Part shown: piece after piece, positions 1,452 to 55,365 of the stretch | Layout: each line of letters opens with the position of its first letter | How positions within the stretch are numbered: the first letter of the stretch is position 1 | DNA from: Flavobacterium sp. | GTDB lineage: Bacteria > Bacteroidota > Bacteroidia > Flavobacteriales > Flavobacteriaceae | Assembly: GCF_035292545.1 (NCBI RefSeq) | Contig: NZ_DATDPV010000009.1 | Span: 24,239-88,238, forward strand | Length of the DNA stretch: 64,000 bases | Direction: 5' to 3' | Translations under genes and position numbers: made by a program | Notes under the pieces: model-generated | What the model was told of the DNA's origin: nothing | Seen by the model: only the letters and a program-made list of their open reading frames with translations | Database searches by the model: none

Positions 1452-1484
1452 GTTAATAAGTTATAAACAATAACGTTTATTTTT

Positions 1485-1522
1485 AAAGAGATTGTACAAT
1501 TGTTTTTGTGCAATCTCTTTTT
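1485..1522 (+). terminator. Intrinsic terminator
   Basis: AAAGAGATTGTACAA / TTGTGCAATCTCTTT inverted repeat followed by T-run. Confidence 0.7.
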
Positions 1523-1619
1523 ATTTGATTTCTTCTTAAAAAATACTTTATTCATATTTTGGGAATAGAACAGTTTCAAAAACATATAAATAGTAAATTT
1601 ACACTGTAAATAAATACCT

Positions 1620-2477: not shown

Positions 2478-2536
2478 TACGTTTTAACTAAATATTTCAT
2501 ATATTACTGAAGAATTATTCATTAAAAATTTAAATT

Positions 2537-3109
2537 ATGAAAAAATTATTTTTCCTTTTGATTGTAGTTTTATGTAATGCGACTTTATTTGCACAAACTA
2601 CCTGGAACGCTGATCCAATGCATTCCAATTTATCCTTTAGCATTACGCACATGGGCATTTCCGACATTGACGGATTATTTAATACGTTTACCGCTTCAGC
2701 AACTACTACCAAAGCGGATTTCAGTGATGCTGTTTTTGAACTTTCTACAGAAGTGGCTTCCATTAATACTCAGGTAGAACAGCGAGATAAGCATTTAAGA
2801 AGTGCCGATTTTTTTGATGTTGAAAAATATCCGAAAATGACCTTTAAAAGCACCTTAATAAAAAAGAAATCTAAAAACAGATACAAATTGAGAGGTAATC
2901 TTACCATGCACGGAATTACTAAAATGGTAAACCTGACTCTTTGGTATAGGGGAACTGTTGAAAATCCACAGTCAAAGGCTATGATTTCGGGTTTTCAGAT
3001 TTCAGGAACTTTAAAACGCAGTGATTTTGGTATTGGCTCCGGTTTTACTGAGGCCATGCTAAGTGATTTTGTAAAGATAAAAGCAGATTGTGAGTTTATA
3101 AAACAATAA
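2537..3109 (+). CDS. YceI-family lipid/polyisoprenoid-binding protein
   Basis: Signal peptide; DPMHS, SINT...RDKHLRSADFFDVEKYP, LTMHGITK, RSDFGIG motifs. Confidence 0.9.
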   Translation: MKKLFFLLIVVLCNATLFAQTTWNADPMHSNLSFSITHMGISDIDGLFNTFTASATTTKADFSDAVFELSTEVASINTQVEQRDKHLRSADFFDVEKYPKMTFKSTLIKKKSKNRYKLRGNLTMHGITKMVNLTLWYRGTVENPQSKAMISGFQISGTLKRSDFGIGSGFTEAMLSDFVKIKADCEFIKQ

Positions 3110-3164
3110 ACTTTATTTGGAGTCGAACTTCTTTTAGTTCAATTGGCCCACAACTTTAAAAACA

Positions 3165-3204
3165 TACAAAACCCGTCTCATATTGCAATAAGACGGGTTT
3201 TGTA
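3165..3204. terminator. Bidirectional intrinsic terminator
   Basis: TACAAAACCCGTCT / AGACGGGTTTTGTA 14-bp inverted repeat between convergent genes. Confidence 0.8.
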
Positions 3205-3233
3205 ACATCATAAAATAGAATGTAAAGAGATAT

Positions 3234-4289
3234 TTATGGTTCAATAATCACTTTCATGGCTTTTTCTTTGGACGCATTTCCAAATACTTCATATGCCTGC
3301 AAAATTTCATCGAGTTTAAAATGATGCGTTATCAGCTTATTTGGATCTATTTTTTTAGAAGTAACTGTTTTCAACAACATGGGTGTGGTATTGGTATTGA
3401 CCAGACCGGTGGTTATTGTAATATTTTGAATCCAGAGGTTTTGAATTTGTAAATCCACACTTTTACCGTGCACGCCAATGTTGGCAATATGTCCGCCTGG
3501 GCGTATGATTTTCTGACAAATATCAAAAGTAGCCGGCATTCCCACTGCTTCAATGGCTACATCTACACCGTCTTTTGTTTCTGACATAATCCTTTTTACG
3601 GCATCTTCTTTTTCGGAATTGATGGTATCTGTAGCGCCGAATTTCTTAGCTAATTCCAGTCTGTTTTCATCCAGATCAATCACATATATTTTTGCGGGTG
3701 AATAAAATTGAGCGGTCAGCAATACTGACATACCGATAGGTCCTGCGCCTACAATAGCAATGGTGTCTCCGGGTTTAACCTGTCCGTTTTGTACGCCAAT
3801 TTCATGTCCTGTTGGTAAAATATCGCTTAACATTACTAATGCTTCCTCATCTGATCCGGCAGGAATATGATGGAGACTGTTGTCTGCATGCGGAATACGT
3901 ACATATTCTGCTTGAGTACCATTAATTAAATGGCCTAATATCCAGCCACCGTCTTCACAATGGGAATACATTTGTTTTTTGCAATATTCGCAGGTGCCAT
4001 CTGATGTAATACAGGAAATAATCACATGATCTCCTTTTTTAAAACTTCTAACGCCTTCGCCTACTTCTTCAATAACGCCCACTCCTTCATGTCCCAGTGT
4101 GGTTCCTGGTTTGCAGGAAGGTGTCTTTCCGTGCAAAATACCTAAGTCAGTTCCACAAATCGTGGTCTTTAAAATTCTGACCAAAGCATCTGTTGGTTTT
4201 TCAATACTCGGCACAGGTATTTCTTTCAATTCAATTTTTCCCGGCCCTCCATATACAAGACCTTTCATTGTTGCTTTCATTCTTTGCAT
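3234..4289 (-). CDS. Zinc-dependent alcohol dehydrogenase (MDR family)
   Basis: ICGTD, GHEGVG, structural Zn cluster (C/D-x2-C-x2-C-x7-C), GAGPIG Rossmann motif. True start may be a downstream ATG. Confidence 0.92.
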   Translation of the reverse strand: MQRMKATMKGLVYGGPGKIELKEIPVPSIEKPTDALVRILKTTICGTDLGILHGKTPSCKPGTTLGHEGVGVIEEVGEGVRSFKKGDHVIISCITSDGTCEYCKKQMYSHCEDGGWILGHLINGTQAEYVRIPHADNSLHHIPAGSDEEALVMLSDILPTGHEIGVQNGQVKPGDTIAIVGAGPIGMSVLLTAQFYSPAKIYVIDLDENRLELAKKFGATDTINSEKEDAVKRIMSETKDGVDVAIEAVGMPATFDICQKIIRPGGHIANIGVHGKSVDLQIQNLWIQNITITTGLVNTNTTPMLLKTVTSKKIDPNKLITHHFKLDEILQAYEVFGNASKEKAMKVIIEP

Positions 4290-4709
4290 GTTTTAAAGTT
4301 TATTGCATTGGTAGATACTAATTGTTCAGCTTTATCTCAAACTACTTATGCTGTTTCGAGTTCTGGAAGTGGGTCTGGGATTAAAGTCTCCTCTTGCGCA
4401 ATAGAATTGCCTATTAAAGATGACTTTAATCATTTCATTATGAATGAATTATTAGTGTAATTTATTACAATAAAGATAGTTAATTTAATCATTATTATAC
4501 ATGATGAAAGTATCATTACTAGCAGATAAAGATGAGATTGGCTTTAAAATAATTAAAAAACGTCAAGAAATTATACAAAGCAAGACGTCATTTAATATAG
4601 GAACTTTATCTAAAATTGAATCTTTTCAATTTGACATCATCTTTGGCTTATCTTTTGTATTGTAGAAAGTAGCGTTTCAATATCTTATAATATAAAAGAG
4701 CCAAAAAGT

Positions 4710-5084
4710 ATGAAAAAATTGATTTTAATGCTATTGCTAACTGGCAGTGCGTATGCTCAGGAACAAGTATTTAACGTTCAGCGTTATTGCGTGGACGAAA
4801 TCCCTTTTAAGAAAGGAGAATGTGATATATTAGGAAATGAATATTCTTTCGTGTTCTTAGATACCAAAAAGAATGATGTAGTATTGTTTCTCACTGATAC
4901 GAGATTGGAATATAAAATTGTTAGCTCTGGTGTCCTTTCTTCCGATCCTGATTACACGCGCTATACTTTAGAAAATAAGTCAGGCCAAATTGAGATGAAA
5001 GTAAACAAACAGCACACAAAAATGGAATTCCTATATCCAAATAGCCGCATCTATTTAACTGTAGGTAAATCCACTAAGCTATAA
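4710..5084 (+). CDS. Secreted hypothetical protein
   Basis: 124 aa ORF with signal peptide MKKLILMLLLTGSAYA. Confidence 0.7.
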   Translation: MKKLILMLLLTGSAYAQEQVFNVQRYCVDEIPFKKGECDILGNEYSFVFLDTKKNDVVLFLTDTRLEYKIVSSGVLSSDPDYTRYTLENKSGQIEMKVNKQHTKMEFLYPNSRIYLTVGKSTKL

Positions 5085-41888: not shown

Positions 41889-41921
41889 AAGCACGTATTT
41901 GGACGTTCCTCGATGATTTTA

Positions 41922-41958
41922 AAAAACCACTGAAAGCCCAATGTTTTCAGTGGTTTTT
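41922..41958. terminator. Hairpin at the icmF/element junction
   Basis: AAAAACCACTGAAA / TTTCAGTGGTTTTT. Confidence 0.75.
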
Positions 41959-42010
41959 GTCTTTTTATAATACATTTTGATTTGTCTTGAATTTATATAA
42001 ATACGCATTT

Positions 42011-42055
42011 GGTTGACTAAATGCTGACTAGATATATATATTATTTATATATTTG
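42011..42055 (+). promoter_or_regulatory. Putative integrase arm-type direct repeats and -7 box
   Basis: GGTTGACTAAA / TGCTGACTAGA at 11-bp period; TATATTTG at 42048-42055. Confidence 0.45.
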
Positions 42056-42076
42056 TTTGGCATAAGCAAATAAGAT

Positions 42077-43324
42077 ATGGCTACTATAAAATATTTACTT
42101 CAAAGTAAAAACGACAATTCAAATATATACGTACGGTATTCGATAAACAGAACTTTAGTTTTGAAACGTAAAACAGGTTTTGTAATTAATCCAAAAGACT
42201 GGAGCGAAGATAAAGCACAACCAATTCAGAGAAATGAAGATTTGAAAGCGATTAAATCTAAGCTGGACAAACTAGCTGTTTTTATTAATGATGCTTATAA
42301 CAATGCGATAAGCAAAGGAATAGTATTTACAGGTGATTGGTTACAACATCAAATTGATTTATTCAATAATAAAATTGTTGTTGTAGACTTAGACGTATTA
42401 TCCAATTCTATTGATGCTTATATTAATAACGGAGACAATTTAACAAGCGGTTCAATAAAAAATTTAGATAATCTTAAAAAATTTATTGTGAACTATGAGA
42501 CCGATGTTTTAAAAGGAAAGCAAATACTTATTAGAGATATTGATTTAAATTTTATTGATGTTTTTAAAAAGTATCATAAAAGTAAGGGGCGTTCCATAAA
42601 TTATATAGGTACTTATATTTCATTGTTAAGGGCGGTTGTCAATAAGGCTTCTTTAAATGGTATTCCAACACATCCACAGTTCAAACAAATAAAAGCGATT
42701 AAAGAAGTTAAAGAACCTGATCAAATTATTATTCTAACAGAAGCAGAACAGGAACTTATAAAAAATGCAACTTTGTTACGTGAAGCACATATAAATGCTA
42801 GAAAATGGCTTTTACTTGGGTGCTTAATCGGGCAAAGGGCAGGAGATTTACTAAATATAACCGACAAAAACATAAAAGGGTTAAACGGTATGAGCATAAT
42901 TGAATTGAAGCAACAGAAAACTGGTAAGCTGGTTGCAATTCCATTACTACCCGAAGCACTTGAAATAGTAGAAAGTGGATTGCCTTACAAAATAAATTTA
43001 GAGCATTTTAATAAATACAGTAAAGAGGTTTGTGAAATAGCAAAAATTAATACAAAGGTAAAAGGTAAAATGCGCATTGATGATAAAAGAACCTTAACGG
43101 CAGGTTATTATGAGAAATGGAAAGTTATAAGTTCTCACGTTTGCAGACGCTCTTTTGCAACTAACTTTTACGGAAGAATTCCAACATCTGTTTTGATGAA
43201 TATAACCGCTCACGGTACGGAAGCTGTTTTTTTAAATTATATTGGAAAAACTACCTATGATAATGCATATCAAATGTTAGAATATTTCAATAAACTTAAA
43301 CCGTTAGCTGAAAATTCAAATTAA
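42077..43324 (+). CDS. int: Tyrosine recombinase / integrase (Bacteroidota type with arm-binding and SAM-like domains)
   Basis: GQRAGD (Arg), QQKT (Lys), SHVCRRSFATN (HxxR), TAH...FLNYI (His, Tyr). Confidence 0.95.
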   Translation: MATIKYLLQSKNDNSNIYVRYSINRTLVLKRKTGFVINPKDWSEDKAQPIQRNEDLKAIKSKLDKLAVFINDAYNNAISKGIVFTGDWLQHQIDLFNNKIVVVDLDVLSNSIDAYINNGDNLTSGSIKNLDNLKKFIVNYETDVLKGKQILIRDIDLNFIDVFKKYHKSKGRSINYIGTYISLLRAVVNKASLNGIPTHPQFKQIKAIKEVKEPDQIIILTEAEQELIKNATLLREAHINARKWLLLGCLIGQRAGDLLNITDKNIKGLNGMSIIELKQQKTGKLVAIPLLPEALEIVESGLPYKINLEHFNKYSKEVCEIAKINTKVKGKMRIDDKRTLTAGYYEKWKVISSHVCRRSFATNFYGRIPTSVLMNITAHGTEAVFLNYIGKTTYDNAYQMLEYFNKLKPLAENSN

Positions 43325-43371
43325 AAGAACTGAATTTTTTCTGATATAATAAGCAACTTAAAAACAATACA

Positions 43372-44223
43372 ATGAATTACGAAAATATATATGAAGGTTT
43401 CTATTCAAAATATTATTCTAAAGCAGAAATTTTGATAAAAAATTTTTTCATCAAAAGACATAGCCAAAAGAGAACATTTGGAAATTCGATTAATGAGGTA
43501 AGATTTTATTTGAGTAATGATTTTATAAATAAGTACATTTTATACAATAATGAAAATTTACACCAATTTTTTTGTAAACGACACAGTATTTATTCCGTTG
43601 ATGAAGTACAAGAAGTTTTTGAAAATGAGATAAAAATTGAATTTGATAAAATTAATGCTTTGGATCTTCCTGCCGATTACAATTATCCAAAATTTATTAA
43701 AGAGATCGCATTAATTGAAGTTAAAAACGAAATTTCAAGATTGCTTTCAAATAATTCAGATTTACTTGTAATGTTCTTTAAATTAAACGAATTTGATGAT
43801 TTCGAAATCAGGGAACATAGAGGCTTATCAGTGGAGGATTACCCAATTTACAAAAAATTGAAGTCAAAATTATATCCTGAAAATTATGCAAATTTTATTG
43901 AAAATAATGATTTCAAAGTACTAGAATTCGAAGTGATAGATTTGAACAATACGACAGCAACTGAAAAAATTATCTATTTGCAAAAGTTAGGAATTATTGA
44001 TTTTTTAAAAGCAAAACAGCCATTTCAATCATCAACTAATAGTTTAGCTACCGTTTTAAGTGCAATAATTGGAGAAAAAGCAACAACTATCCAACCAATG
44101 ATAAACCCCATCGTATCTAAAGATGTCGATTCCAAAAACAATCCTTTAAATTCTCGAAAAGCTGTTAATAGAGTAGAACAGCAACTTGTAAAAATGGGTT
44201 TCAATCTTAATGAAACGATTTAG
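43372..44223 (+). CDS. Hypothetical protein between integrase and excisionase
   Basis: 283 aa open frame; helical C-terminal region (IIYLQKLGIIDFL...LATVLSAII). Confidence 0.7.
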   Translation: MNYENIYEGFYSKYYSKAEILIKNFFIKRHSQKRTFGNSINEVRFYLSNDFINKYILYNNENLHQFFCKRHSIYSVDEVQEVFENEIKIEFDKINALDLPADYNYPKFIKEIALIEVKNEISRLLSNNSDLLVMFFKLNEFDDFEIREHRGLSVEDYPIYKKLKSKLYPENYANFIENNDFKVLEFEVIDLNNTTATEKIIYLQKLGIIDFLKAKQPFQSSTNSLATVLSAIIGEKATTIQPMINPIVSKDVDSKNNPLNSRKAVNRVEQQLVKMGFNLNETI

Positions 44224-44280
44224 GGAAACCCTAGAAAAAACCTAACTGCTATTTGTGTCTTAATATTAATAAGACACAAA

Positions 44281-44562
44281 ATGAACACACCAATTTTCTT
44301 AAACGGCATCACATTAGAGCAATTAGCTGAAGTACTTGCACCACTTTTGCAAGCTCAAATTTCACAACTTCAACAACCTGTAAAGGTAGAACCTGAAAAT
44401 GACTTAATTACTCGAAAACAAGTTTGCGCACTTTTGAGTATAAATTTCACAACTCTTTGGAAGCATACCAAATCGGGAAAATTGAAAAGTTTCGGAATTG
44501 GAAATCGGGTATTTTATTCAAAAATCCAAGTTTTAGAAGCCGTTAAACCTATTAACGGATAA
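44281..44562 (+). CDS. Excisionase-like helix-turn-helix protein (HTH_17/AlpA type)
   Basis: LITRKQVCALLSINFTTLWKHTKSGKLKSFGIGNRVFY. Confidence 0.88.
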   Translation: MNTPIFLNGITLEQLAEVLAPLLQAQISQLQQPVKVEPENDLITRKQVCALLSINFTTLWKHTKSGKLKSFGIGNRVFYSKIQVLEAVKPING

Positions 44563-44567
44563 CGGTT

Positions 44568-46964
44568 TTGGATTCGGCAAAACCAACAGCCTTGCCAAAA
44601 AACTATATTGCTGAAGGGATTAAATTAGACTTCTTTAATGATTCTAATTTAAAAACTGATATTCAAAATCGCATTTCGGTTACTATCGGAACAGACTTTA
44701 TAAAAGCTTTAAATTGTATTAAAGGTGATAGAGGAACGGGCGAAAACTTTTCAGAAATAACACGTTTGGCAATGGCTTATTTTTTCTCTGAAATCTTCAA
44801 GGATAAAATAAAGGATAGTTACTATTCATTAGAAATGGTAAAAGGGTTTTTAGATGCTAATAATCTAACATCGTACACAGCAATTCACGAACGGGATGTG
44901 AAATTTTATAAATTAAATGAAGCACCATTATTCAAACATTGTTGGTTAATTATTCAAAGTGCATGGTATTTTAATTCGCCACATTTTGGGCACCACCAAC
45001 ATATTGACTATGTAAATCACTATATAGCTACGGGCGAAAAGTTACCAATTGCACAATATAATTTTGATCCAATTTATTTGGAAAAAAAGTATAGTAATAT
45101 TGATGATATAAAAAACAAAAAAACACCCATAAACGGCTTTGCATTAGTTAGTCAATGGTATCATGGAATTTTATTTCTAGTATGTAAAGAATTGGGATTG
45201 TCAACAACAAATTTTGTCGTGTCAGACAAAGACAACAGAGAATTTAATCCTTTAACGAAGACGTCTCGACAATTGCGAAGTCTCGCTCCGTTCAAAATAA
45301 TAGAATGTGATATAAAAAGTGCATTCCCTACCTTTTTAGATGTTGAAACTGGCGCAAAATTAAAAGATCAAGTTTATAATAATTTGATGCAATCTAACAA
45401 GATAACAAGAGGTGAAGCAAAAGTGTTATTTAATACCGTTTGCAATAGTAGAGAGTATAAAAGCAAAGTAGAAACAATAACGTTTTTTTTAGCTTGTGGT
45501 TATACTCAAAAGCAATGTGAACATCTTGTAACACTAACTCACAGTCCTAAAGCGAAATTTTATTCGTTTATGACAGAGTATGAAAGTGCGGCAATAAAAC
45601 ATTTCGTTTTTAACAATGATTTAAAACATTATGGACGGTTGCACGATGCAGTATTGTTTATTGACAGTAAAATAAAACCAGCGCATCTTAAGGTAGATCC
45701 AAATTGCGATTTTGGATATAAGGAACTAAACCGACCCATTTATAAAGAAACTTTCAGTTTGTCAGACAAACGTTTGCCGTATGCTTATGTCAGGAGTGTT
45801 CCAAAGGGATTAAATTTGGTTATCAGACATGATGCAATAAAACCCGAAGTTAAGGGTGTAGCTAATGGTTTTGTTTTTTATAAAGAAAAGTTTCAATATA
45901 TTGATGCAAGTTTTAATATGAACGATTTTAGAATTGATTACAGCACGTTCCTTCTCAAAATTGAAACAATGTTGAGTACGTTACAGTTTTTGAATAATAG
46001 ACCTACAAAACCTGAACATGTGTATTTGATTCTGCAACATATTAGAGCACATAGTCAATATGTGTTTAATGTGAAAGCTGTGTATTTAAGAGTTGTAAAG
46101 TTTAAATATTTGCCCAAGCTTGTTGTCGTAAAAGAGCGCAATTATAATGTTCTTGTGCCTATGTTATTTAAAAAAATTAGAGATTATTCACAGGCACGGA
46201 ATGAAGCCGAAAAGATTGTAAATACGACTACTAATTATTATAATTTATTTTGTTTAATAAAGGAACGAATCATAAACAATGATTATAGTTATGTGGACGA
46301 ATTAATTATAAATGGTAAAAAGGTAAACAATGTTTTGATTTATGTAATAATCAGCAAATTCAATTTGTTATGTACTGGTTTAGAGAGAAAGCCACGTAAA
46401 AGAGTTAGTGGAGACCCTCTTTATAATAGCAGTATAAAGAGGGTAACTCTTAACGGTTTTACGTTGAATACTAAAATTCAAAATGCAGTTACACAACGTA
46501 CAGTTATAAAATATGAGCGGGAGTTAAAAGAGTATAACCGATTGATAAATAATCGACAAATTGCACAACAATTGTTTTTAATCCTTTGCGATGTTGCTGG
46601 TCAAAAACATAATCTAAAAATAGATGAAAATATTGAGATCCAAAACCAATTGAAAACTGAACTAATTGCAATGATTGACAAAAAAGAGGTTTCTGATTTT
46701 CAAATAGGAGCAATTGAGTTTGACAAACGATTTAAATCAAATACCAAAAAAGAATTACCGATCATTTCAGATTTGAAGAATGTTTTTGATACGGATTTTA
46801 AAAATTCTATTTTTAATCAAATATCAATTGAGGAAGCATATAATAGAGGAGACGTTTTTTTTAAGGAATACTTAAACTTTCACGATAAAGATCAAAGAAA
46901 AGAAAAGATTATTCCAGTAAAAAAAATTAAAGAAGTTTTTAATTTTCCGGAACTTTCTTTTTAA
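44568..46964 (+). CDS. Large hypothetical protein with family-A-polymerase-like palm/finger motifs
   Basis: D248 in DIKSAFP, R281-x3-K285 in RGEAKVLFN, H359-D360 in RLHDAVLF. Start codon uncertain (TTG). Confidence 0.6.
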   Translation: MDSAKPTALPKNYIAEGIKLDFFNDSNLKTDIQNRISVTIGTDFIKALNCIKGDRGTGENFSEITRLAMAYFFSEIFKDKIKDSYYSLEMVKGFLDANNLTSYTAIHERDVKFYKLNEAPLFKHCWLIIQSAWYFNSPHFGHHQHIDYVNHYIATGEKLPIAQYNFDPIYLEKKYSNIDDIKNKKTPINGFALVSQWYHGILFLVCKELGLSTTNFVVSDKDNREFNPLTKTSRQLRSLAPFKIIECDIKSAFPTFLDVETGAKLKDQVYNNLMQSNKITRGEAKVLFNTVCNSREYKSKVETITFFLACGYTQKQCEHLVTLTHSPKAKFYSFMTEYESAAIKHFVFNNDLKHYGRLHDAVLFIDSKIKPAHLKVDPNCDFGYKELNRPIYKETFSLSDKRLPYAYVRSVPKGLNLVIRHDAIKPEVKGVANGFVFYKEKFQYIDASFNMNDFRIDYSTFLLKIETMLSTLQFLNNRPTKPEHVYLILQHIRAHSQYVFNVKAVYLRVVKFKYLPKLVVVKERNYNVLVPMLFKKIRDYSQARNEAEKIVNTTTNYYNLFCLIKERIINNDYSYVDELIINGKKVNNVLIYVIISKFNLLCTGLERKPRKRVSGDPLYNSSIKRVTLNGFTLNTKIQNAVTQRTVIKYERELKEYNRLINNRQIAQQLFLILCDVAGQKHNLKIDENIEIQNQLKTELIAMIDKKEVSDFQIGAIEFDKRFKSNTKKELPIISDLKNVFDTDFKNSIFNQISIEEAYNRGDVFFKEYLNFHDKDQRKEKIIPVKKIKEVFNFPELSF

Positions 46965-47048
46965 TAAAGATAAAATTTTTTCAAAAGAATTATAGCTTCT
47001 ATTTTGCGTAACAAAAGGTTTTATTTTTAGATTTTTTTTCACAAAGGG

Positions 47049-47190
47049 TATTGCAAAAGCTTTGCAAAGGTTTTGCAAAAAGTGTTGTGAAACCTTTGCA
47101 AGTATAATAAAGATAGAGAAATCAATGGATAGTGTACAAAATATCAACAAATAGTTTTGCAATCCTTCTATTGCAATCCTTCCATTGACT
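47049..47190. repeat. TTGCAA-rich repeat block (left part of the array)
   Basis: TTGCAA at 47051, 47062, 47073 (11-bp period), 47096, 47157, 47171; shares GAGAAATCAAT-N28-TTTTGCAA with 49087-49133. Confidence 0.75.
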
Positions 47191-47203
47191 ACATTTTTCT
47201 CGC

Positions 47204-47278
47204 TATAGCAGTAAAAAAAATATTTTTTCCTATTTTAGTTTAGCAAAATAAATAAAACAGTCTATTTTTACTGCTATA
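47204..47278. promoter_or_regulatory. 14-bp inverted repeat upstream of hipB (candidate operator)
   Basis: TATAGCAGTAAAAA (47204-47217) / TTTTTACTGCTATA (47265-47278). Confidence 0.55.
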
Positions 47279-47359
47279 ATGGTAATAATAGGTTGTTTTA
47301 TTTAAAATCACTTGTTTATATTGATTAATAAGTCTAAATTTACTGCTTAAACAGTAATT

Positions 47360-47569
47360 ATGAATGATTTTAATTTAGGGGACTTTATCAAAACGCATAG
47401 AAAAAAAGCGGGGCTAACACAATTGGAACTGGCAAACTTAGCGGGTATCGGTAAAACTACCGTATTTGATTTAGAAAAAAATAAAGAAACGGTTAAGTGG
47501 AATAATCTAAAATCCATACTGAATGTTTTAAATATTGAAGTTCAATTTATAAGTCCTTTAAATAAATAA
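47360..47569 (+). CDS. hipB: XRE-family HTH protein, HipB-like
   Basis: RKKAGLTQLELANLAGIGKTTVFDLEK; first gene of a tight three-gene operon. Confidence 0.85.
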   Translation: MNDFNLGDFIKTHRKKAGLTQLELANLAGIGKTTVFDLEKNKETVKWNNLKSILNVLNIEVQFISPLNK

Positions 47570-47571
47570 GT

Positions 47572-47886
47572 ATGAGAAAAGCTATTGTTTATGTCCATAA
47601 TAATAGGGCTGGTGAATTGATAGAGGAAGAGTTGGGACACTATACTTTTAAATATGATCCCGACTATAATTTAGAACCTGTTTCTCTGACAATGCCTGTT
47701 CATCAAAAAGTGTATTCCTTTAATCATTTCCCACCTTTTTTTGAAGGATTATTGCCCGAAGGTATCATGCTGGAAGGACTTTTGAAAATCAATAAATTTG
47801 ATAAAAAAGATTATTTATCACAATTAATTGCAACTGGAAATGATTTGGTAGGTGCTGTAACTGTTAAAGCTGATAGTCATGAATAG
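47572..47886 (+). CDS. hipS: HipA N-terminal-domain protein, HipS-like antitoxin
   Basis: AGEL..., FKYD..Y, VSLTMP, PPFFEGLLPEG, DLVGAV. Confidence 0.85.
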   Translation: MRKAIVYVHNNRAGELIEEELGHYTFKYDPDYNLEPVSLTMPVHQKVYSFNHFPPFFEGLLPEGIMLEGLLKINKFDKKDYLSQLIATGNDLVGAVTVKADSHE

Positions 47887-48802
47887 ATGCCCTATATCCT
47901 ATGCACTTTGTGGTAATGATAAATACAGTATTGAAGGATTACGAATGCTATCCCCAAAACTAACTGCAATTCAGGATTTGCCATTTTCAGCATCAGAACA
48001 AAGACAAGAAGCTGCAAACAGAGCCAGTAAATTATCTATCCAAGGCGTTCAACCTAAATTGAGTGCTATTTTATCTATTGCAAACAATCAATTTGAAATT
48101 GTGGATCAGTTTGGAAATTATATTATCAAACCACAAAATGATTTATTTCCAGAATTGCCCGAAAATGAAGATGTAACAATGCGTATGGCAAAAGTGTATG
48201 GAATTGACGTTCCTCTTCATGGATTAATTTATTCTAAAGACAATTCTAAATCCTATTTCATCAAACGATTTGACCGACATGGAAAAGGCAAAAAATATGC
48301 TACAGAAGATTTTACACAATTGACAGGAAATTCAAGAGATACAAAATACAATTACAGCATGGAAAAAGTAGTCCAAGTTTTAGAGGATTACTGTACTTTT
48401 CCAGTCCTAGAAAAAGCTGAATTTTTCAAAAGGATTTTATTTTGTTTTGTGACTGGCAATGAAGACATGCATCTTAAAAATTTTTCATTGATTACAAAAT
48501 CTGGTAAAACAACATTAACTCCCGCTTATGATTTCCTAAATTCATCTATTGCAGTCAAAAATCCACAAGAAGAAATGGCATTAACGCTTAAAGGAAAGAA
48601 AAGCAATTTTAAGAATACCGACTTGATCGATTATTTTGCCAAAGAAAGATTGCAATTGAATGACAAGACAATTGATAAAATAGTAAACGACCTATTTAAA
48701 ACTGCTCCAAAATGGACGGAATTAATTGAGATCTCTTTTTTGTCTGCCACTATGAAAGAAAAGTATTTTAGCTTAATGAAAGAACGGTTGAGTAGATTTT
48801 AA
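47879..48802 (+). CDS. hipT: HipA C-terminal-domain Ser/Thr kinase, HipT-like toxin
   Basis: N-terminal CPIS motif, SIQGVQPK loop, RFDR, GNEDMHLKNFS, PAYD. Confidence 0.9.
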   Translation: MNRCPISYALCGNDKYSIEGLRMLSPKLTAIQDLPFSASEQRQEAANRASKLSIQGVQPKLSAILSIANNQFEIVDQFGNYIIKPQNDLFPELPENEDVTMRMAKVYGIDVPLHGLIYSKDNSKSYFIKRFDRHGKGKKYATEDFTQLTGNSRDTKYNYSMEKVVQVLEDYCTFPVLEKAEFFKRILFCFVTGNEDMHLKNFSLITKSGKTTLTPAYDFLNSSIAVKNPQEEMALTLKGKKSNFKNTDLIDYFAKERLQLNDKTIDKIVNDLFKTAPKWTELIEISFLSATMKEKYFSLMKERLSRF

Positions 48803-48903
48803 AATTCGAAAAATAATTATCATTGAATATATTTTATAGAAAAAAATAATAAAATTTATTGTTGACAATCTGTTAAACGACTGTTACAAAAAAACCTAGG
48901 AAT

Positions 48904-49262
48904 CAAAGGTTTTGCAAAACCTACATTGCAAAATTATTCTTTAGCATTGCATTACCTCTTTTCAACTTCAACAAGTGTTCATGGAGATTGATAAATCAAT
49001 TGAGCGTGCAAAAGTGCTTTTGCAAGACCTCCATTGCAAAATTATTCGTTGATATTGCAATGCTTTTGTAACATCATTGTAATTGAGAGAAATCAATAAA
49101 TTGTATTAAAAATATATAAAAACTCTTTTGCAAAACCACCCTTGCAAAATTATTCTTTAACATTGCAATACCATTTCAACCATCATTAAGTATAGAAATA
49201 TAATTAAGTTTTATATGTTAAATCAAAAACACTTTTGCAAAACGATTTGTAAAAGTGTTTTT
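48904..49262. repeat. Tandem array of 108-bp-period units with conserved TTGCAA heads
   Basis: TTTTGCAA starts at 48910, 49018, 49126, 49233; TTGCAAAATTATTC at 48926, 49034, 49142; ends in a 17-bp hairpin 49225-49262. Confidence 0.85.
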
Positions 49263-49426
49263 TAATGTCAATATAAATTCTTACAAAAGATAAAATTATG
49301 ATTCTTTAAAATATTTTTATAGAAATGTTTCTATTTACGGCTTTCCTCAACATACTTGATGAAATAATCTTTACTTTAGCAATCGAATTATTTAATTTCA
49401 ATTAAAGAAATAATTATTTAAAATTA

Positions 49427-51955
49427 ATGAAAAATGAAGCTCATGCAAGAATCAAAATAAACCAACTACTTTCTGAAGCAGGATGGAGATTCTTTGATAA
49501 TGAGCTAGGAAGGGCTAATATTTTATTAGAAAATCATGTGAAAATCACCCAAACAGAAATAGATGCTTGGGGTAGTGACTTTGAAAAAACTAAGAGTGGT
49601 TCTCTCGATTTTCTACTTGTTGATACAAATAACAAACCCATTTGTGTTTTAGAAGCCAAAAAAGAGAGTTTACATCCATTAGTAGCTAAAGAACAGGCAA
49701 GAAAGTATGCAAATGCAGTGGATGCTCAATATATCATTTTATCGAATGGTATTGTTCATTATTTATGGGATTTAAAAAAGGGAAATCCCAAACCCATTTA
49801 TAAATACCCTTCTCCTACCGAAATTGGGGCTATTAAAGACTGGAATCCAGACAGAGTAGAATTAGCCAGTGAAGTTGTTAGTATTGATTATATTGCTTCA
49901 GTACAAATGCCAGACTATGCCGAAAGACCTAGTTGGAATGGGACAGTGGAGAGTAGTACTGATTTTATTTGGAACAATAAGCTTCGCTTTTTACGCTATT
50001 ATCAATTAAAGGCTGTTCAAAAATTGCAAGAAGCTGTTGCCAATGGTAAAGATCGATTTCTTTTTGAAATGGCTACTGGAACGGGTAAAACTCTAACAGC
50101 TGCTGCGGTTATCAAATTATTTTTACGTACCAAAAATGCGAAAAAAGTTTTATTTTTAGTTGATAGAATAGAATTAGAAGATCAAGCTTACAAAGATTTT
50201 ACCAATTATTTAAAGCCAGATTATACCACTTATATATACAAAGAACATAGAACTGATTGGCATAAAGCAGAAATTGTCGTTACTACTATTCAATCATTGC
50301 TTTTTAATAATAAGTATCGTGATTTGTTTACTCCTACTGATTTTGATTTATTAATTTCTGACGAATCGCATCGTTCTGTTTCTGGAAACTCGAGAGCAGT
50401 TTTTGAATATTTTAATGGCTATAAATTAGGATTAACGGCTACACCAAAAGATTATTTGAAAGGTGTAGATATTGATAAAATAAAAGAAAATGACCCGAGA
50501 GAAATTGAACGTAGAATGCTTCGGGATACTTACAATACTTTTGGGTGTGATAATGGTCAACCTACTTTTAGATATACTTTATTACAAGGGGTTAAAGATG
50601 ATTTTTTAAGAAACCCCATCACGATAGATGCTCGCACAGAAATTACTACACAATTACTTTCAGATCAGGGTTATGCCGTAATTAGGCAAACGGAAGAAGG
50701 TGAAGAATCGGAAATTTTTGTTTCAAGAGATTTTGAAAAAAAATTCTTTTCTGATAAAACTAATGCTATTTTTTGCAAAACATATTTAGAAAAAGCATTG
50801 CGTGATCCAATAACTAACGAAATAGGTAAAACAATCATTTTTGCGGTAAGCCAAAATCATGCAAGACGATTGACCGAAATTTTAAACGAATTTGCTGAGA
50901 AATTATTTCCAAATAAGTACAATTCCGATTTTGCAGTTCAAGTAACTTCACAGGTTACTGATGCACAACAAATGACCATTAATTTTTCTAATGATAATTT
51001 AAATGGAAAAACTAATTGGCTAGAAGGTTATAAATCAAGTAAAACTCGTATTTGCATAACAGTTGGAATGATGACAACAGGTTATGATTGTTCTGATTTA
51101 TTAAATATTTGTTTAATGCGTCCCGTTTTTAGTCCATCCGATTTTGTTCAGATTAAAGGTCGTGGCACCCGTAAACATACGTTTACCTTTAAATCTAAAA
51201 ACGAATTGAATGAAGAGGAAATAATACAAAAGGATAAGAAGAACTTTAAATTATTTGATTTTTTTGCCAACTGTGAATATTTTGAAGAGAAATTTGACTA
51301 TGATGAGGTTTTAATTCTACCAAAAACTGGGGAAGGTAAAACTGATAATTCTGGTGGAAATTCTAAAATAAAAAAATATACTAGTGAAATTATAGATCCT
51401 TTATTAGTAATGGAGGAGAAGGAAATAGGTCTTGATGGCATGAAGATTGACCGCATGCTTTATCGTGATTTTGAAAATAGAATTATAATGGACGACATTA
51501 TTAAAAAGAATGTTGAATTAGGTAATTGGGAACTAATAGTGAGTCATATTCAAAATGAAATTCTTGACAAACCCAATGAATATTTTAATATGGAAAAATT
51601 GCGGAAAGCTGCTAAAATAGATCGTAAAGTTTCCATACGTGAAATGGTAGAAAAAATATTTGGTATTATACCTAAATTCAAATCAAAAGACGAAATGCTT
51701 GATGAAGAATTTGATAAATTCATTTCTATCTATCCCCCGGAAGAAGATGTAAATATTAGAGCATTACAATATTTCTTCAAAGCTTACATTGTTGACCAAG
51801 ATATTAGGAAAATAATTGAAACTAAAGATTTTCAAGCCTTACAAACTAATCCTACTTTAACAATAACTCAATTTAAAGAAGTAGCAGCTAAATACAGAGA
51901 AGTAATTCCAGTATATATTAAAGATTATATTAAACTAGAGAATTTTGCAGCATAA
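49427..51955 (+). CDS. hsdR: Type I restriction endonuclease subunit R (EcoEI-like)
   Basis: D..L...EAKK nuclease motif, MATGTGKT, DESH, LTATP, MMTTGYD, QIKGRGTR. Confidence 0.92.
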   Translation: MKNEAHARIKINQLLSEAGWRFFDNELGRANILLENHVKITQTEIDAWGSDFEKTKSGSLDFLLVDTNNKPICVLEAKKESLHPLVAKEQARKYANAVDAQYIILSNGIVHYLWDLKKGNPKPIYKYPSPTEIGAIKDWNPDRVELASEVVSIDYIASVQMPDYAERPSWNGTVESSTDFIWNNKLRFLRYYQLKAVQKLQEAVANGKDRFLFEMATGTGKTLTAAAVIKLFLRTKNAKKVLFLVDRIELEDQAYKDFTNYLKPDYTTYIYKEHRTDWHKAEIVVTTIQSLLFNNKYRDLFTPTDFDLLISDESHRSVSGNSRAVFEYFNGYKLGLTATPKDYLKGVDIDKIKENDPREIERRMLRDTYNTFGCDNGQPTFRYTLLQGVKDDFLRNPITIDARTEITTQLLSDQGYAVIRQTEEGEESEIFVSRDFEKKFFSDKTNAIFCKTYLEKALRDPITNEIGKTIIFAVSQNHARRLTEILNEFAEKLFPNKYNSDFAVQVTSQVTDAQQMTINFSNDNLNGKTNWLEGYKSSKTRICITVGMMTTGYDCSDLLNICLMRPVFSPSDFVQIKGRGTRKHTFTFKSKNELNEEEIIQKDKKNFKLFDFFANCEYFEEKFDYDEVLILPKTGEGKTDNSGGNSKIKKYTSEIIDPLLVMEEKEIGLDGMKIDRMLYRDFENRIIMDDIIKKNVELGNWELIVSHIQNEILDKPNEYFNMEKLRKAAKIDRKVSIREMVEKIFGIIPKFKSKDEMLDEEFDKFISIYPPEEDVNIRALQYFFKAYIVDQDIRKIIETKDFQALQTNPTLTITQFKEVAAKYREVIPVYIKDYIKLENFAA

Positions 51956-51992
51956 TTTTAAAATTAAATAATACATACCCATAATAAAGATA

Positions 51993-54515
51993 ATGTTAGA
52001 TAACATAACAAAAAGAAGAATTGATGATTGCCGTGATATTTTGGTTGGAAAATTACCTGACCCAAAATCACAAATAGAACAAATAACCATTGCGCTGATT
52101 TATAAATTCATGGATGACATGGATAAAGAAGCGATTGAACTAGGTGGAAAGGCAAAATTCTTTTCAGATTATACAATTCCTGATCCAAATGATATTAAAA
52201 AACAAATTGTTATTCCTTTTGAAAAATACAGTTGGGACAATCTATTTGATAGCAAAGTAAGTGCTACCGAAATGCTTAAACTGTATTCGGAAGCGATTGA
52301 AGGAATGGTAAAAAACCCTAATATTCCTGAACTGTTTGCTAATATTTTTAAGAATGCCTATTTACCTTATCGTGACCCCGAAACTTTGAAAATGTTTCTT
52401 AAAACGATAAGTGAATTTGAATATACGCACAGTGAAAAACTAGGGGATGCCTTTGAATATTTACTTTCTGTAATGGGTTCGCAAGGTGATGCTGGACAGT
52501 TTAGAACACCGCGACACATTATTGATTTTTTGGTTGCAGCCGTAAACCCAAGTAAAACTGACACTATTCTTGACCCAGCCTGTGGTACCGCTGGATTTTT
52601 GATTTCTGCCTTTAAACACATTAAAGAACAAAACAATAATATCTTAACTCCAGACGAACGTAAAAAGTTAATTAAGAATTTTATCGGGTATGATATTTCG
52701 CCCGATATGGTGCGATTAAGTTTGGTCAATCTGTATTTACACGGCTTTTCTGACCCACATGTTTTTGAATATGATACATTAAGCAGTGAAGACCGTTGGG
52801 ACGAAACCTTTGATGTGGTGTTAGCAAACCCGCCATTTATGAGTCCAAAAGGAGGTATACGACCACACAAAAAATTTACCATAAGCAGCAATCGTAGCGA
52901 AGTATTGTTTGTAGATTATATAGCTGAACATTTAAACCCAAAAGGAAGAGCTGGTATTATTGTACCCGAAGGGATAATTTTTCAAAGTGGCACGGCCTAT
53001 AAAGCCTTGCGAAAAATGTTAGTGGACAAATACTTGTATGCCGTGGTGAGTTTGCCCGCAGGTGTTTTTAATCCTTATAGCGGTGTAAAAACATCAATTT
53101 TATTGATGGATGCTGATTTAGCTAAGAAAACGGATGATGTTTTATTTATAAAAATTGATAATGACGGTTATAATCTTGGAGCACAACGCAATTCCGTAAA
53201 AGGAGGACAATTAGAGGACGCAGTTGAAACTTTAAAAACGTTTAGACAAAATAGTGTTGAAGGAAAGTTATTTGAAAATACGTTTTTAGCTCAAGCTGTA
53301 AATAAAGCTGAAATTGGAAAAAGTGGTGATTATAATTTGACTGGTGAAAAGTATAAAGTCAATACAATTTTAAACTCAAATTATGAATTTGAATTATTAT
53401 CCAATGTCTGTGAAATAAATCCTGAAACTATTGATCCTGCCAATCTTAATACTGAAGAGTTTGTTTATATTGATATAGCATCAGTTGAAAATGGTACGGG
53501 TAGAATAAATTATGATAATATCGTAAAAAAAGAAAATGCACCATCTAGAGCTAGAAGAAAAGTTCGAGATAAAGATATAATTCTTTCGACTGTAAGACCA
53601 AATTTAAAAGCCTTTGGTTTTATTGAAAATCCTCCTGAGAATACAATTTCATCAACTGGCTTTGCAGTTCTTAGGCCAAAAAAAAATCTAAATTCGAAGT
53701 TCCTATTTTATAATTTATATACTGATAACATGGTATCTCAAATGGTTTCCATGATGGGCAAAGGCTCTTATCCGAGTATTAATCAGTCAGATGTTTCTTC
53801 GCTTAAAATACCGCTTCCACCTCTTTCTATTCAAGAAGAAATTGTTGCTGAAATTGAGAGCTATCAAAAAATAATTGATGGAGGTAAAATGGTGGTAGAT
53901 AATTACAAACCCAGAATTGAGATTGATAAGGATTGGGAGATGTTAGCGTTTGAAGACATTTGCTTAGTCAATCCTAAAAAATCGGAAATAAATACTCTTG
54001 ATGACGATACTCAAGTTTCGTTTGTGCCAATGGCAGATTTGAATGAGAATCAAATCGATTTTATTCCTAATCAAGTAAAACCCTTAAGCGAAGTATACAA
54101 AGGTTATACTTATTTTAAGGAAAATGATGTATTACTTGCTAAAGTAACACCCTGTTTTGAAAATGGAAAAGCTGGTATAGCTAAAAAATTGGTCAACGGA
54201 ATTGGTTTTGGTTCAAGTGAATATTATGTGTTTAGACCAAACGAAAAAATTCTTTCAACTTGGATATACTTAAATATTATTACAGTTAATTTTAGAGAAA
54301 GAGGAAAACTTAACATGACTGGGACTGGTGGTTTACAACGAGTACCCACGGATTATGTTAAATCATATCAAATTCCAGTTCCTCCAATAGAAACCCAACA
54401 ACAAATCGTTTCCCAAATTGAAAAAGAGCAGGCATTGGTCAATGCTAATAAAGAGTTGATTACAATTTATGAGCAAAAGATAAAGGATAGAATTGGTAAA
54501 GTCTGGGGAGAGTAA
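51993..54515 (+). CDS. hsdM: Fused type I methyltransferase-specificity protein (HsdM plus two TRDs)
   Basis: GQFRTPRH, DPACGTAGFL, NPPF; then two Methylase_S-like units ending IPLPPLSIQEEIV and IPVPPIETQQQIV. Confidence 0.92.
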   Translation: MLDNITKRRIDDCRDILVGKLPDPKSQIEQITIALIYKFMDDMDKEAIELGGKAKFFSDYTIPDPNDIKKQIVIPFEKYSWDNLFDSKVSATEMLKLYSEAIEGMVKNPNIPELFANIFKNAYLPYRDPETLKMFLKTISEFEYTHSEKLGDAFEYLLSVMGSQGDAGQFRTPRHIIDFLVAAVNPSKTDTILDPACGTAGFLISAFKHIKEQNNNILTPDERKKLIKNFIGYDISPDMVRLSLVNLYLHGFSDPHVFEYDTLSSEDRWDETFDVVLANPPFMSPKGGIRPHKKFTISSNRSEVLFVDYIAEHLNPKGRAGIIVPEGIIFQSGTAYKALRKMLVDKYLYAVVSLPAGVFNPYSGVKTSILLMDADLAKKTDDVLFIKIDNDGYNLGAQRNSVKGGQLEDAVETLKTFRQNSVEGKLFENTFLAQAVNKAEIGKSGDYNLTGEKYKVNTILNSNYEFELLSNVCEINPETIDPANLNTEEFVYIDIASVENGTGRINYDNIVKKENAPSRARRKVRDKDIILSTVRPNLKAFGFIENPPENTISSTGFAVLRPKKNLNSKFLFYNLYTDNMVSQMVSMMGKGSYPSINQSDVSSLKIPLPPLSIQEEIVAEIESYQKIIDGGKMVVDNYKPRIEIDKDWEMLAFEDICLVNPKKSEINTLDDDTQVSFVPMADLNENQIDFIPNQVKPLSEVYKGYTYFKENDVLLAKVTPCFENGKAGIAKKLVNGIGFGSSEYYVFRPNEKILSTWIYLNIITVNFRERGKLNMTGTGGLQRVPTDYVKSYQIPVPPIETQQQIVSQIEKEQALVNANKELITIYEQKIKDRIGKVWGE

Positions 54516-54516
54516 T

Positions 54517-55365
54517 ATGAGAGCATTACAAGAAATAGTAAACAGACATAATAAAGTCGCCTTTTTGATTGGTAACGGACCCAACTTGGCTGCTAAAATA
54601 ATGCCGTCATGGAAGGATTTATTAAAGTCTGCATCCGATAGACCTATTCGATTTGAAGTTGATGGACTTTCTAATACAGAAGTTTATGATTTGGTAGAAA
54701 TATATTCAACCGAACCTAAAGAGGTTAAAAACCATGTTAAAAGTAAACTAGAATTACTACCAACTTATAATATTAGTATTCATAGGAGGTTGATGGAGTT
54801 TGCAATTGCTAATGATTCCCCTGTCTTATCTACAAATTTTGATGAAGTATTTGAGAAATCTATAAATGCAGAATTATTTCATATAGAATCAAAAGGATTT
54901 GCACGTTTTTATCCATGGAAAACGTATTACGGATTAACACAACATATTCTACCTACTGATGGTTTTGGAATTTGGAAAGTTCACGGAGATGTTCGTTATA
55001 CGGATAGTATTCGACTTGGCCTAACCGATTACATGGGAAGTTCCGAAAGAGCAAGGAAATTAATTCATAATGGAGAAGATAGATTGTTTAATGGCAAGCG
55101 TCAAGAGTTATGGTCAGGTCATCAAACTTGGCTTCATATATGGTTCAATTTACCTATTGTTATTTTTGGTTTAACTTATGGTTTAGACGAAGTCTTTTTA
55201 CGTTGGCTTTTAATAGAAAGAAAACGGTATTTAAATATATATAGTAGCCCCATGAATGTATATTATGTTTACAAAGACACACCTGCACCTTCAGTTAGCA
55301 ATCTTATGCGAAATTTAGATGTTGAACTAGTTAGTATTAATGATTATTCTGAACTATACGGATAA
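54517..55365 (+). CDS. SIR2-family (SIR2_2-like) protein, putative NADase
   Basis: FLIGNG, W..LL, STNFD, KVHGD motifs; ATG 1 nt after the hsdMS stop. Confidence 0.8.
   Translation: MRALQEIVNRHNKVAFLIGNGPNLAAKIMPSWKDLLKSASDRPIRFEVDGLSNTEVYDLVEIYSTEPKEVKNHVKSKLELLPTYNISIHRRLMEFAIANDSPVLSTNFDEVFEKSINAELFHIESKGFARFYPWKTYYGLTQHILPTDGFGIWKVHGDVRYTDSIRLGLTDYMGSSERARKLIHNGEDRLFNGKRQELWSGHQTWLHIWFNLPIVIFGLTYGLDEVFLRWLLIERKRYLNIYSSPMNVYYVYKDTPAPSVSNLMRNLDVELVSINDYSELYG

Follow-up and report, generated by a model that had tools for sequence, protein, structure and literature searches.

An integrative island of Flavobacterium carries, between a hipBST-like gene trio and its defence cargo, three tandem non-coding units of 108 bp, each of which opens with a conserved head of about 43 bp built on the palindrome TTGCAA and continues into a body that has diverged to random-level identity. 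The same hexamer is clustered downstream of the gene for an orphan 798-aa protein with family-A-polymerase-like (PolA-like) features, in this island and in eight of nine close relatives, whereas the tandem array itself is found in none of them. We consider it probable that the array is a protein-binding DNA element; that its sites are iteron-like and auxiliary to an origin-like cluster at positions 47050-47180, and thereby linked to replication, is a narrower reading that we advance tentatively.

Results

Position of the array in the island

The window, by which we mean the whole stretch of 64,000 nucleotides analysed, contains an integrative island that sits after a methylmalonyl-CoA mutase gene. 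The order of the island is integrase, 283-aa protein, HTH_17 protein, 798-aa protein, non-coding stretch, hipBST-like trio, array and defence cargo, the last including the restriction subunit of a type I system, a fused methylase-specificity protein and a SIR2-like protein. No ParA/ParB-type genes were present among the ten island ORFs scanned (42077-55365). The features outside the array are listed below.

42077-43324: integrase, first gene of the island order
44281-44562, plus strand: HTH_17 (excisionase/AlpA-like) protein of the island core, alternative candidate binder
44568-46964, plus strand: 798-aa orphan protein with family-A-polymerase-like motifs and fold, candidate replicase and candidate binder
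47050-47180, unstranded: first TTGCAA cluster, 85-215 bp past the stop codon of the PolA-like gene, found by scanning the window's own genome for head-like strings
47200-48822, plus strand: hipBST-like cassette (HTH_3 47360-47569, HipA_N 47572-47886, HipA_C 47879-48802)
49330-49426, plus strand: type I restriction-modification (RM) leader/promoter region, TTACGGCTTTCCTCA ... CTTTAGCAATCGAATTAT, conserved and common to relatives without the array

The hipBST-like cassette lies between the first TTGCAA cluster and the array and has its own operator-like TTTACTGC/GCAGTAAA repeats. The trio with its promoter region (~47200-48822) is found alone in ~10% of Flavobacterium species at 71-76% identity, and the homology of these lone matches mostly ends ≤20 bp from the hipA stop codon, which indicates that the cassette was inserted into a pre-existing non-coding region and that the array is not part of it. 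On the other side of the array, the final 100 bp upstream of hsdR are the conserved RM leader. Both the 80 bp upstream of the array and the stretch past its closing hairpin are collinear with the same region in two relatives, L175 and L160; comparison with the relatives gave no support to the idea that the array is inverted relative to them.

Anatomy of the 108-bp units

Three full units at exactly 108-bp spacing had been described in a first-pass annotation of this DNA, and two approaches bore this out. A repeat finder returned a 63-nt stretch in three copies (starts 48902, 49010 and 49118; start-to-start distances 108 and 108 bp), and the pattern TTTTGCAA-N8-TTGCAAAA occurred exactly three times in the 64-kb window (48910, 49018 and 49126), compared with 0.07 occurrences expected from dinucleotide-preserving shuffles; for TTGCAAAATTATTC the corresponding numbers were 3 and 0.28. 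Independently assembled contigs from three other soil-metagenome runs spanned the array with zero differences and no copy-number variants among them, so the array is not an assembly artefact. Its parts are as follows.

48902-49009, unstranded: unit 1, head 48910-48953, TTGCAA at 48912 and 48926, TTGCAT at 48947
49010-49117, unstranded: unit 2, head 49018-49061, TTGCAA at 49020, 49034 and 49055, body GAGAAATCAAT at 49087
49118-49225, unstranded: unit 3, head 49126-49169, TTGCAA at 49128, 49142 and 49163
49223-49264, unstranded: degenerate fourth head turned hairpin, stem arms 49225-49241 and 49246-49262, flanks A5/T6

Each head follows the formula TTTTGCAA-N8-TTGCAAAA-N13-ATTGCA over a length of ~43 bp and comprises three TTGCAA sites (O1, O2 and O3) with centres 14 and 21 bp apart; in unit 1, O3 reads TTGCAT instead of TTGCAA, and exact TTGCAA copies number 2, 3 and 3 in the successive units. 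The 63-nt heads are pairwise 70-78% identical in the 108-bp register, and the conserved head of about 40 bp noted earlier resolved into a 43-bp core in which 34 of 43 columns are invariant. The A+T-rich bodies, in contrast, showed identities of 24%, 24% and 47%, against a shuffle mean of 30% (sd 6%), and Tandem Repeats Finder did not detect the array because the bodies have diverged. Variable bodies of equal length had been proposed; the variability stands, at random-level identity, while the equal length is weakened by a weak body motif, (G/T)AAATCAAT, which shifts from offset 84 in unit 1 to offset 72 in unit 2, so that the bodies may hold compensating indels.

Both palindromic features already on record are present, namely TGCAAAAG-TG-CTTTTGCA at 49007-49024 and the 17-bp hairpin at 49225-49262, and the head of unit 1 opens with a perfect 14-bp palindrome, GGTTTTGCAAAACC. 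The fourth head reported at 49233 also exists, in degenerate form and inside the hairpin, where a fourth copy of TTTTGCAAAA makes up the 5' arm of the 17-bp stem. The hairpin (−17.1 kcal/mol, z = −5.65) has T6 directly after it and looks like a bidirectional intrinsic terminator that divides the array from the RM leader.

The contrast between near-invariant heads and saturated bodies argues for selection on the heads, and the head-to-head distance, of which there are two intervals only, has probably been under selection as well. Selection on spacing, as first suggested, is backed by a period of exactly 108 bp that persists despite saturated bodies, but the 108-bp spacing is not conserved in the island family, and with only two intervals the exact period rests on n = 2. 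No coherent phase of the TTGCAA sites was seen at the 10.5-bp helical repeat (resultant 0.11); the coherence at 10.8 bp (0.70) is trivial because 108 = 10 × 10.8. DnaA boxes were absent from the non-coding region.

TTGCAA clusters in the window and in related islands

The first TTGCAA cluster holds six copies of the hexamer (47051, 47062, 47073, 47096, 47157 and 47171; spacings 11, 11, 23, 61 and 14 bp), split 4 + 2 around a 55-bp A+T-rich stretch (47102-47156). Within it lies a head-like TTTTGCAA-N8-TTGCAA (47155-47176), an exact 16-mer at 47065-47080 is common to the cluster and the start of unit 1, and the 48 nt at 47115-47162 align gap-free, at 73%, across the junction of units 2 and 3, with the body of the former and the head of the latter. 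The non-coding region of the window has 15 TTGCAA in 1019 bp compared with 45 in 63 kb, and the 64-kb window contains no other TTGCAA clusters.

We read nine distinct related islands (L034, L035, L156, L158, L159, L160, L173, L174 and L175), whose PolA-like protein is 66-75% identical. The core is the same in all nine; 430-750 bp of non-coding DNA separate it from the defence cargo, which varies. TTGCAA clusters occur in the non-coding DNA after the PolA-like gene in 8/9 islands; the close relative L173 has almost no cluster. In six relatives the density of the hexamer in this DNA was 7.2/kb, compared with 0.94/kb in the rest of the loci (Poisson P ~1e-16), and TTGCAA was by far the commonest palindromic hexamer there. 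Neighbouring sites were 11-14 bp apart in 15 of 26 cases and 20-24 bp apart in 10 of 26. L159 has a single head in which O1, a loop 4 nt shorter and O2 are followed by O3 and then the same TACCATT; its O2-O3 gap of 15 nt has the length seen in the array heads with a different spacer sequence, the 15-mer CATTGCAATACCATT is common to this head and that of unit 3, and the sites of this island are arranged 3 + 3 around ~330 bp, the other relatives being laid out differently. The string GAAATCAAY, a further 30 nt and a head are kept at three places, namely the non-coding region at 46965-47359, the junction of units 2 and 3, and L175. L175 and L160 are collinear with both of these window segments; after GAAATCAAY and 30 nt, L175 has TTGCAA-N8-TTGCAA, the corresponding values in L160 being 31 nt and N7. 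An invariant hexamer whose copies change in number, order and partners, at distances that are kept while the spacers drift, points to clusters of protein-binding sites rather than to a structured RNA, in which the architecture would be retained and paired bases would covary. In relatives at 56-60% identity, genes come directly after the PolA-like gene, with no cluster and no long non-coding region.

The 108-bp tandem array was absent from all nine related islands, which makes it a lineage-specific triplication of a conserved cis-module, and whatever the triplication adds is therefore dispensable for the family. A search for the array elsewhere in Flavobacteriaceae, which the first-pass annotation had suggested, found it in none of ~800 other genomes, so the 108-bp spacing is not a conserved feature of the island family. 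By blastn against its own genome and 60 relatives, the array was unique, the short matches being A+T-rich chance similarity; two blastn matches that overlapped the head (G017 and G042) lacked the motif. The strict head pattern gave single matches only, and no arrays, in 400 family genomes and, among the matches listed, single occurrences and no arrays in metagenome contigs; many of its matches were SecA coding sequence or unrelated. A sequence-only head model (R1) run against 400 Flavobacterium genomes recovered no second array. The multi-match locus (L191) was a protein-coding 21-bp heptad repeat; L188/L204 and L190/L203 were TTGCAA clusters in metal-resistance or primase contexts, not arrays. 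Neither the array nor the PolA-like protein had a relative among viral contigs, plasmids and phages. TTGCAA clusters were also seen ahead of a metal P-type ATPase gene and, in the window's own genome, ahead of an integrase gene; such unrelated contexts mean that the hexamer is not specific to replication modules.

Two of the earlier expectations were borne out in part. Co-occurrence with PolA-like homologues holds for TTGCAA clusters and single heads, which accompany the gene in 8/9 close relatives, but for the 108-bp array in none. The notion of an iteron-like or nucleoprotein scaffold gains from the fact that the building blocks travel with the PolA-like gene and recur at 47050-47180, and loses from the lack of the tandem array in any relative.

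The 798-aa protein and other core proteins

The 798-aa protein has ~190 homologues, all unannotated and none with a Pfam domain, and the protein itself gave no Pfam, NCBIfam, PHROG or PDB sequence match. Its alignment keeps D248, R281/K285 and H359-D360, ordered like polymerase motifs A, B and C. For the AlphaFold model (pLDDT 78), the 50 best PDB matches were all family-A DNA polymerases, the best Foldseek match being weak (E = 6e-3, TM ~0.2). The PolA-like identity assigned on the first pass thus has weak support at the level of the predicted fold, and we keep the label as plausible, not secure. No helicase, primase or winged-helix initiator domain was recognisable in the 798-aa protein, and no primase/helicase domain was detected in any core protein. 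The fold of the 283-aa core protein is all-alpha and matched no PDB entry significantly; the C-terminal domain of this protein occurs a single time in the window's own genome and so does not account for the genome's other TTGCAA clusters.

Proposed function and alternatives

We propose that the array arose by a lineage-specific threefold tandem amplification of a cis-module from the non-coding region after the PolA-like gene, and that the TTGCAA palindromes would be double-stranded-DNA sites for a dimeric DNA-binding protein. Candidate binders are the C-terminal part of the 798-aa PolA-like protein, the HTH_17 protein, the 283-aa protein or a host factor. The proximal cluster at 47050-47180, which begins 85 bp past the stop of the PolA-like gene, and the array may together form a two-part iteron region, in which the proximal cluster would serve as an origin-like site and the three-unit array, in an auxiliary role, would recruit, titrate or pair with the same protein after excision of the island, with a logic as in P4 ori plus crr or plasmid control iterons. 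Speaking against a part in replication are the lack of an initiator, helicase or primase domain, the lack of DnaA boxes, the near-empty L173 and the TTGCAA clusters in unrelated contexts, for which reasons we call protein binding probable and its replication-linked form, although it is the explanation we prefer, somewhat less likely than not. A bolder extension, in which the island family would be a satellite-like replicon whose orphan family-A-polymerase-like initiator/replicase recognises TTGCAA and the array would be a crr-like or handcuffing copy-number locus, is speculative, and we think it improbable.

If the TTGCAA sites are instead operators, the HTH_17 protein or a host regulator bound to them would gate the defence cargo or the induction of the island. 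A precedent is RptR, which binds three 6-bp palindromes of another sequence (TAGCTA); these sites accompany type I RM in defence islands and lie across the −10 box of the first gene, and the regulator is encoded there (PMC12255303). The island resembles this system in having ~three copies of a six-bp palindrome together with type I RM defence, and an operator role would also fit the conserved HTH_17 gene of the core, the finding that in every relative type I RM or other defence cargo follows the TTGCAA clusters in the same orientation, and the promoter-like places that such clusters occupy elsewhere (own-genome integrase, P-type ATPase). Judged by layout alone, against the RptR-type arrangement of two or more 6-bp palindromes across the promoter of the first gene of the island, the array differs in that the sites are 165-520 bp upstream of hsdR behind a hairpin, with no adjacent small regulator. 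The array ends 165 bp upstream of the hsdR ATG with the strong terminator-like hairpin between, the RM leader has its own promoter-like box, conserved in relatives without the array, and no conserved small regulator ORF adjoins the sites. The intergenic regions upstream of the core genes have no TTGCAA, so there is no sign of autoregulation, and overall we regard an operator array as unlikely. A feature acting as RNA seems to us decidedly improbable. It could take the form of three antisense promoters sending short RNAs toward the hipA 3' end, or of a hipBST 3' UTR processed to small RNAs and ending at the 49262 terminator. The minus strand of 3/3 heads carries a perfect Bacteroidota −7 box, TAATTTTG, of which O2 is a part, and O1 and O2 of each head (TTTTGCAA and TTGCAAAA) can pair into an 8-10 bp hairpin with an 8-nt loop, (A/G)ACCnnCn, with a U-rich stretch after it. 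Folded as the plus strand, the region as a whole exceeds shuffles in stability (z = −4.3), the minus strand has a terminator-like hairpin with a T7 run immediately left of unit 1 (48890-48915), and no canonical plus-strand promoter occurs between hipA and the array, which makes read-through plausible. Against the sigma-A promoter pattern of Bacteroidota (−7 box TAnnTTTG with a −33 TTG 17-23 nt upstream), however, the putative antisense promoters raised on the first pass match in part: the minus-strand boxes are real, but no head has the −33 TTG at that distance and the head homologues of the relatives lack the −7 box. The hairpins that the heads can form are weak (−6.5 to −8.4 kcal/mol; z −1.1, −1.4 and −3.8, only unit 3 lying beyond shuffles), the minus-strand regional fold is unremarkable (z = −1.8), and covariation is absent, the two arms of a stem being the same palindrome in every case. 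Extra TTGCAA copies that do not pair are conserved to the same degree, and the bodies, which would form the bulk of any such RNA, are unconstrained. A search for RNA runs that contain the stretch found none. No Rfam family matched; in the Rfam 15 scan (E up to 10), only sub-threshold microRNA/CRISPR-repeat chance matches fell on the terminal hairpin. Each unit has a small ORF (MQNYSL..., 21, 21 and 15 aa) that opens with the TTG of O2 and shows no similarity to the others beyond six codons; as they are not conserved, these ORFs were rejected as genes. Readings of the head as a sigma-54 or canonical plus-strand promoter were rejected on inspection and by a promoter scan.

The units could also lack a function of their own and represent a recent-looking but decaying tandem duplication that arose from the hipBST insertion or from replication slippage, the heads staying similar only because each retains the sites on which the single ancestral copy depended, or through gene conversion. 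In keeping with this, the array is unique to one lineage, its bodies are random-like, two intervals only lie behind the exact 108, and it occupies a rearranged junction beside an inserted cassette that is flanked on both sides by a 16-bp direct repeat. Neutral decay, however, should strike head and body alike, whereas 34/43 head columns are invariant next to saturated bodies; the period has survived substitutions without net indel; and gene conversion confined to ~43 bp in three copies would be unusual. We therefore give this explanation a low probability and favour the protein-binding array.

Discussion

Arrays of short binding sites are already known from the neighbourhood of replication or regulatory genes; what is distinctive here is the 6-bp palindromic motif, the 108-bp units with three sites each and the orphan PolA-like protein, in an undescribed Flavobacterium defence-island family. 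For Proteobacteria and Firmicutes there are good descriptions of defence-carrying integrative islands (P4-like elements, PICIs and SaPIs); to our knowledge, those of Bacteroidota have barely been described. The present family combines a core of integrase, 283-aa, HTH_17 and PolA-like proteins with exchangeable type I RM or other defence cargo and lacks annotated elements for replication or regulation. Our analysis found a single conserved non-coding signal in the family, the TTGCAA module, of which the triplicated form represents a natural variant in dosage. The main value of the array is that it offers the most obvious experimental entry point to the island family. If a core protein binds, the module would give a direct handle on island replication or switching and yield candidate components of a Flavobacterium replicon; should it have no binder, the array would be an ordinary decaying duplication. 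Should the satellite-replicon interpretation be true, this would be the first cis-acting replication element defined for such a Bacteroidota replicon.

The closest parallels in layout are to satellite and plasmid origins. In SaPI origins, 6-12 iterons of five or six nucleotides follow rep directly and form two sets on either side of an AT-rich stretch (PMC9371898), and PICI origins have the same two-set layout (PMC6092414). The hexamer repeats of the island likewise start right after its putative replication gene, the SaPI/PICI core of int, regulator, xis and rep being comparable, and short repeats downstream of the replication-protein gene are found in the window and in 8/9 close relatives. 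The differences are that the putative replicase of the island is a PolA-like orphan, not a Rep helicase (SF3/SF4) with a winged helix, that its hexamer is palindromic and so confers no orientation, and that SaPI origins have nothing corresponding to the 108-bp triple array, which lies 1.8 kb away. Arrays of the CRISPR or type III ToxI-like kind do not fit: their repeats would be conserved as whole RNA-forming elements beside a cas or toxin gene, whereas conservation here is limited to ~43 nt in 108, with hipBST and type I RM as neighbours.

In the phage-plasmid P4, crr reportedly consists of two direct 120-bp repeats with three ori iterons in each, and the ~777-aa alpha protein is said to bind both ori and crr. 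On this description of crr, the island is similar in having three direct 108-bp repeats with about three sites each and a separate cluster beside a gene for a 798-aa protein; it differs in that its core proteins have no primase/helicase homology to alpha and that the array is not conserved among relatives. The sopC locus of F is composed of tandem fixed-length units with one palindromic binding site each and is conserved over the whole length. The island shares the fixed-length tandem units and the palindromic sites, but its bodies are not conserved. In P1 incA and F incC, extra initiator-binding arrays outside the minimal origin titrate or 'handcuff' the initiator. Their iterons are 19-22 bp direct repeats placed head to tail, whereas the island has 43-bp heads at a 108-bp period; it resembles these control iterons in that its array, too, is a lineage-specific, dispensable extra array.

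Integration site and the 283-aa core protein

In at least four genomes, the island family was directly preceded by a methylmalonyl-CoA mutase gene, as seen in the window (41889-42076) and in the left flanks of the related islands L034, L035 and L158. This shared position points to the 3' end of that gene as a conserved site of integration. Within the island core, the 283-aa protein (43372-44223) shared its C-terminal ~100 aa, at 62-78% identity, with the C-termini of many Flavobacterium proteins that were 170-330 aa long and had unrelated N-termini; this C-terminal part is a mobile, highly conserved domain. An AF2 model yielded no match when compared with the PDB.

A hipBST-like cassette and the type I RM cargo

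The cassette comprises the following module:

47360-48802: hipBST-like module of three genes, HTH_3 with separate HipA_N and HipA_C

We detected this module in 32 of the 301 Flavobacterium species sampled, at a DNA identity of 71-76%, and because homology in most of these matches ended at the hipA stop codon or in its vicinity, the module behaves as a mobile cassette. Directly 5' of the HTH_3 gene lie the inverted repeats TATAGCAGTAAAAA / TTTTTACTGCTATA (47205-47218 and 47266-47280) and TTTACTGCTTAAACAGTAA (47340-47358), and these repeats of the 47200-47358 stretch probably serve as operators of the HipB type. Homology to the cassette begins within the same stretch in several other Flavobacterium genomes. 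In the type I RM cargo, the methylase and both specificity (Methylase_S) repeats were fused into one 840-aa protein (51993-54515), with the 3' end of its gene overlapped by the SIR2-like gene that comes next.

Other repeated sites in related islands

In the stretch that separates the TTGCAA cluster from the RM leader, five related islands carried palindromes of the CACGTTAACGTG / CCCGTTAACGGG type in 4-6 copies, located at 8730-8900 in L034, at 12740-12900 in L035, and in the same place in L156, L158 and L173. These palindromes are a second, lineage-specific set of repeated sites, one that tracks the core lineage and not the cargo. At 4850-5010 of a further relative, L159, two TTGCAA triplets flanked ~9 copies of (T)ACATAATGT(A), arranged in tandem or overlapping, and the copies constitute an iteron-like array with another motif at the same position. 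In two relatives (L034, 5629-5661; L159, 1808-1936), clusters of ATACCA/TGGTAT were also observed in the short intergenic region 5' of the HTH_17 gene; these clusters are possible core-operon operators.

TTGCAA clusters at other loci

Elsewhere in the genome that contains the window, three TTGCAA with 9-bp spacing (contig C57, 161999-162022; positions 4000-4023 of the locus L207) filled the 72 bp that separate the end of a DUF3987 gene, at its stop, from the start of a gene for a tyrosine integrase, and this locus is a second integrative element, unrelated to the island of the window. Three more clusters (952-985, 3376-3399 and 4577-4594) were found on contig C38 in the 950-4600 region (locus L206), which holds small unannotated ORFs with faint PHROG matches and may be another mobile element.

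The head-model scan of Flavobacterium genomes returned L188 (1499-1561) and, at the same place, L204, each with six TTGCAA at 11-13 bp spacing. These sites fall within a primase-like coding sequence (Zn-ribbon/DUF6371) adjoined by heavy-metal-associated genes. A 21-bp tandem repeat in L191 (560-960; ~16 copies, each with TTGCAA) was rejected as a relative of the array, being an open reading frame that encodes heptad repeats VAMT(I/N)N(G/F). Pairs of ATTGCAAT with 11-bp spacing occurred in L190 and L203, in the latter upstream (5') of a P-type ATPase.
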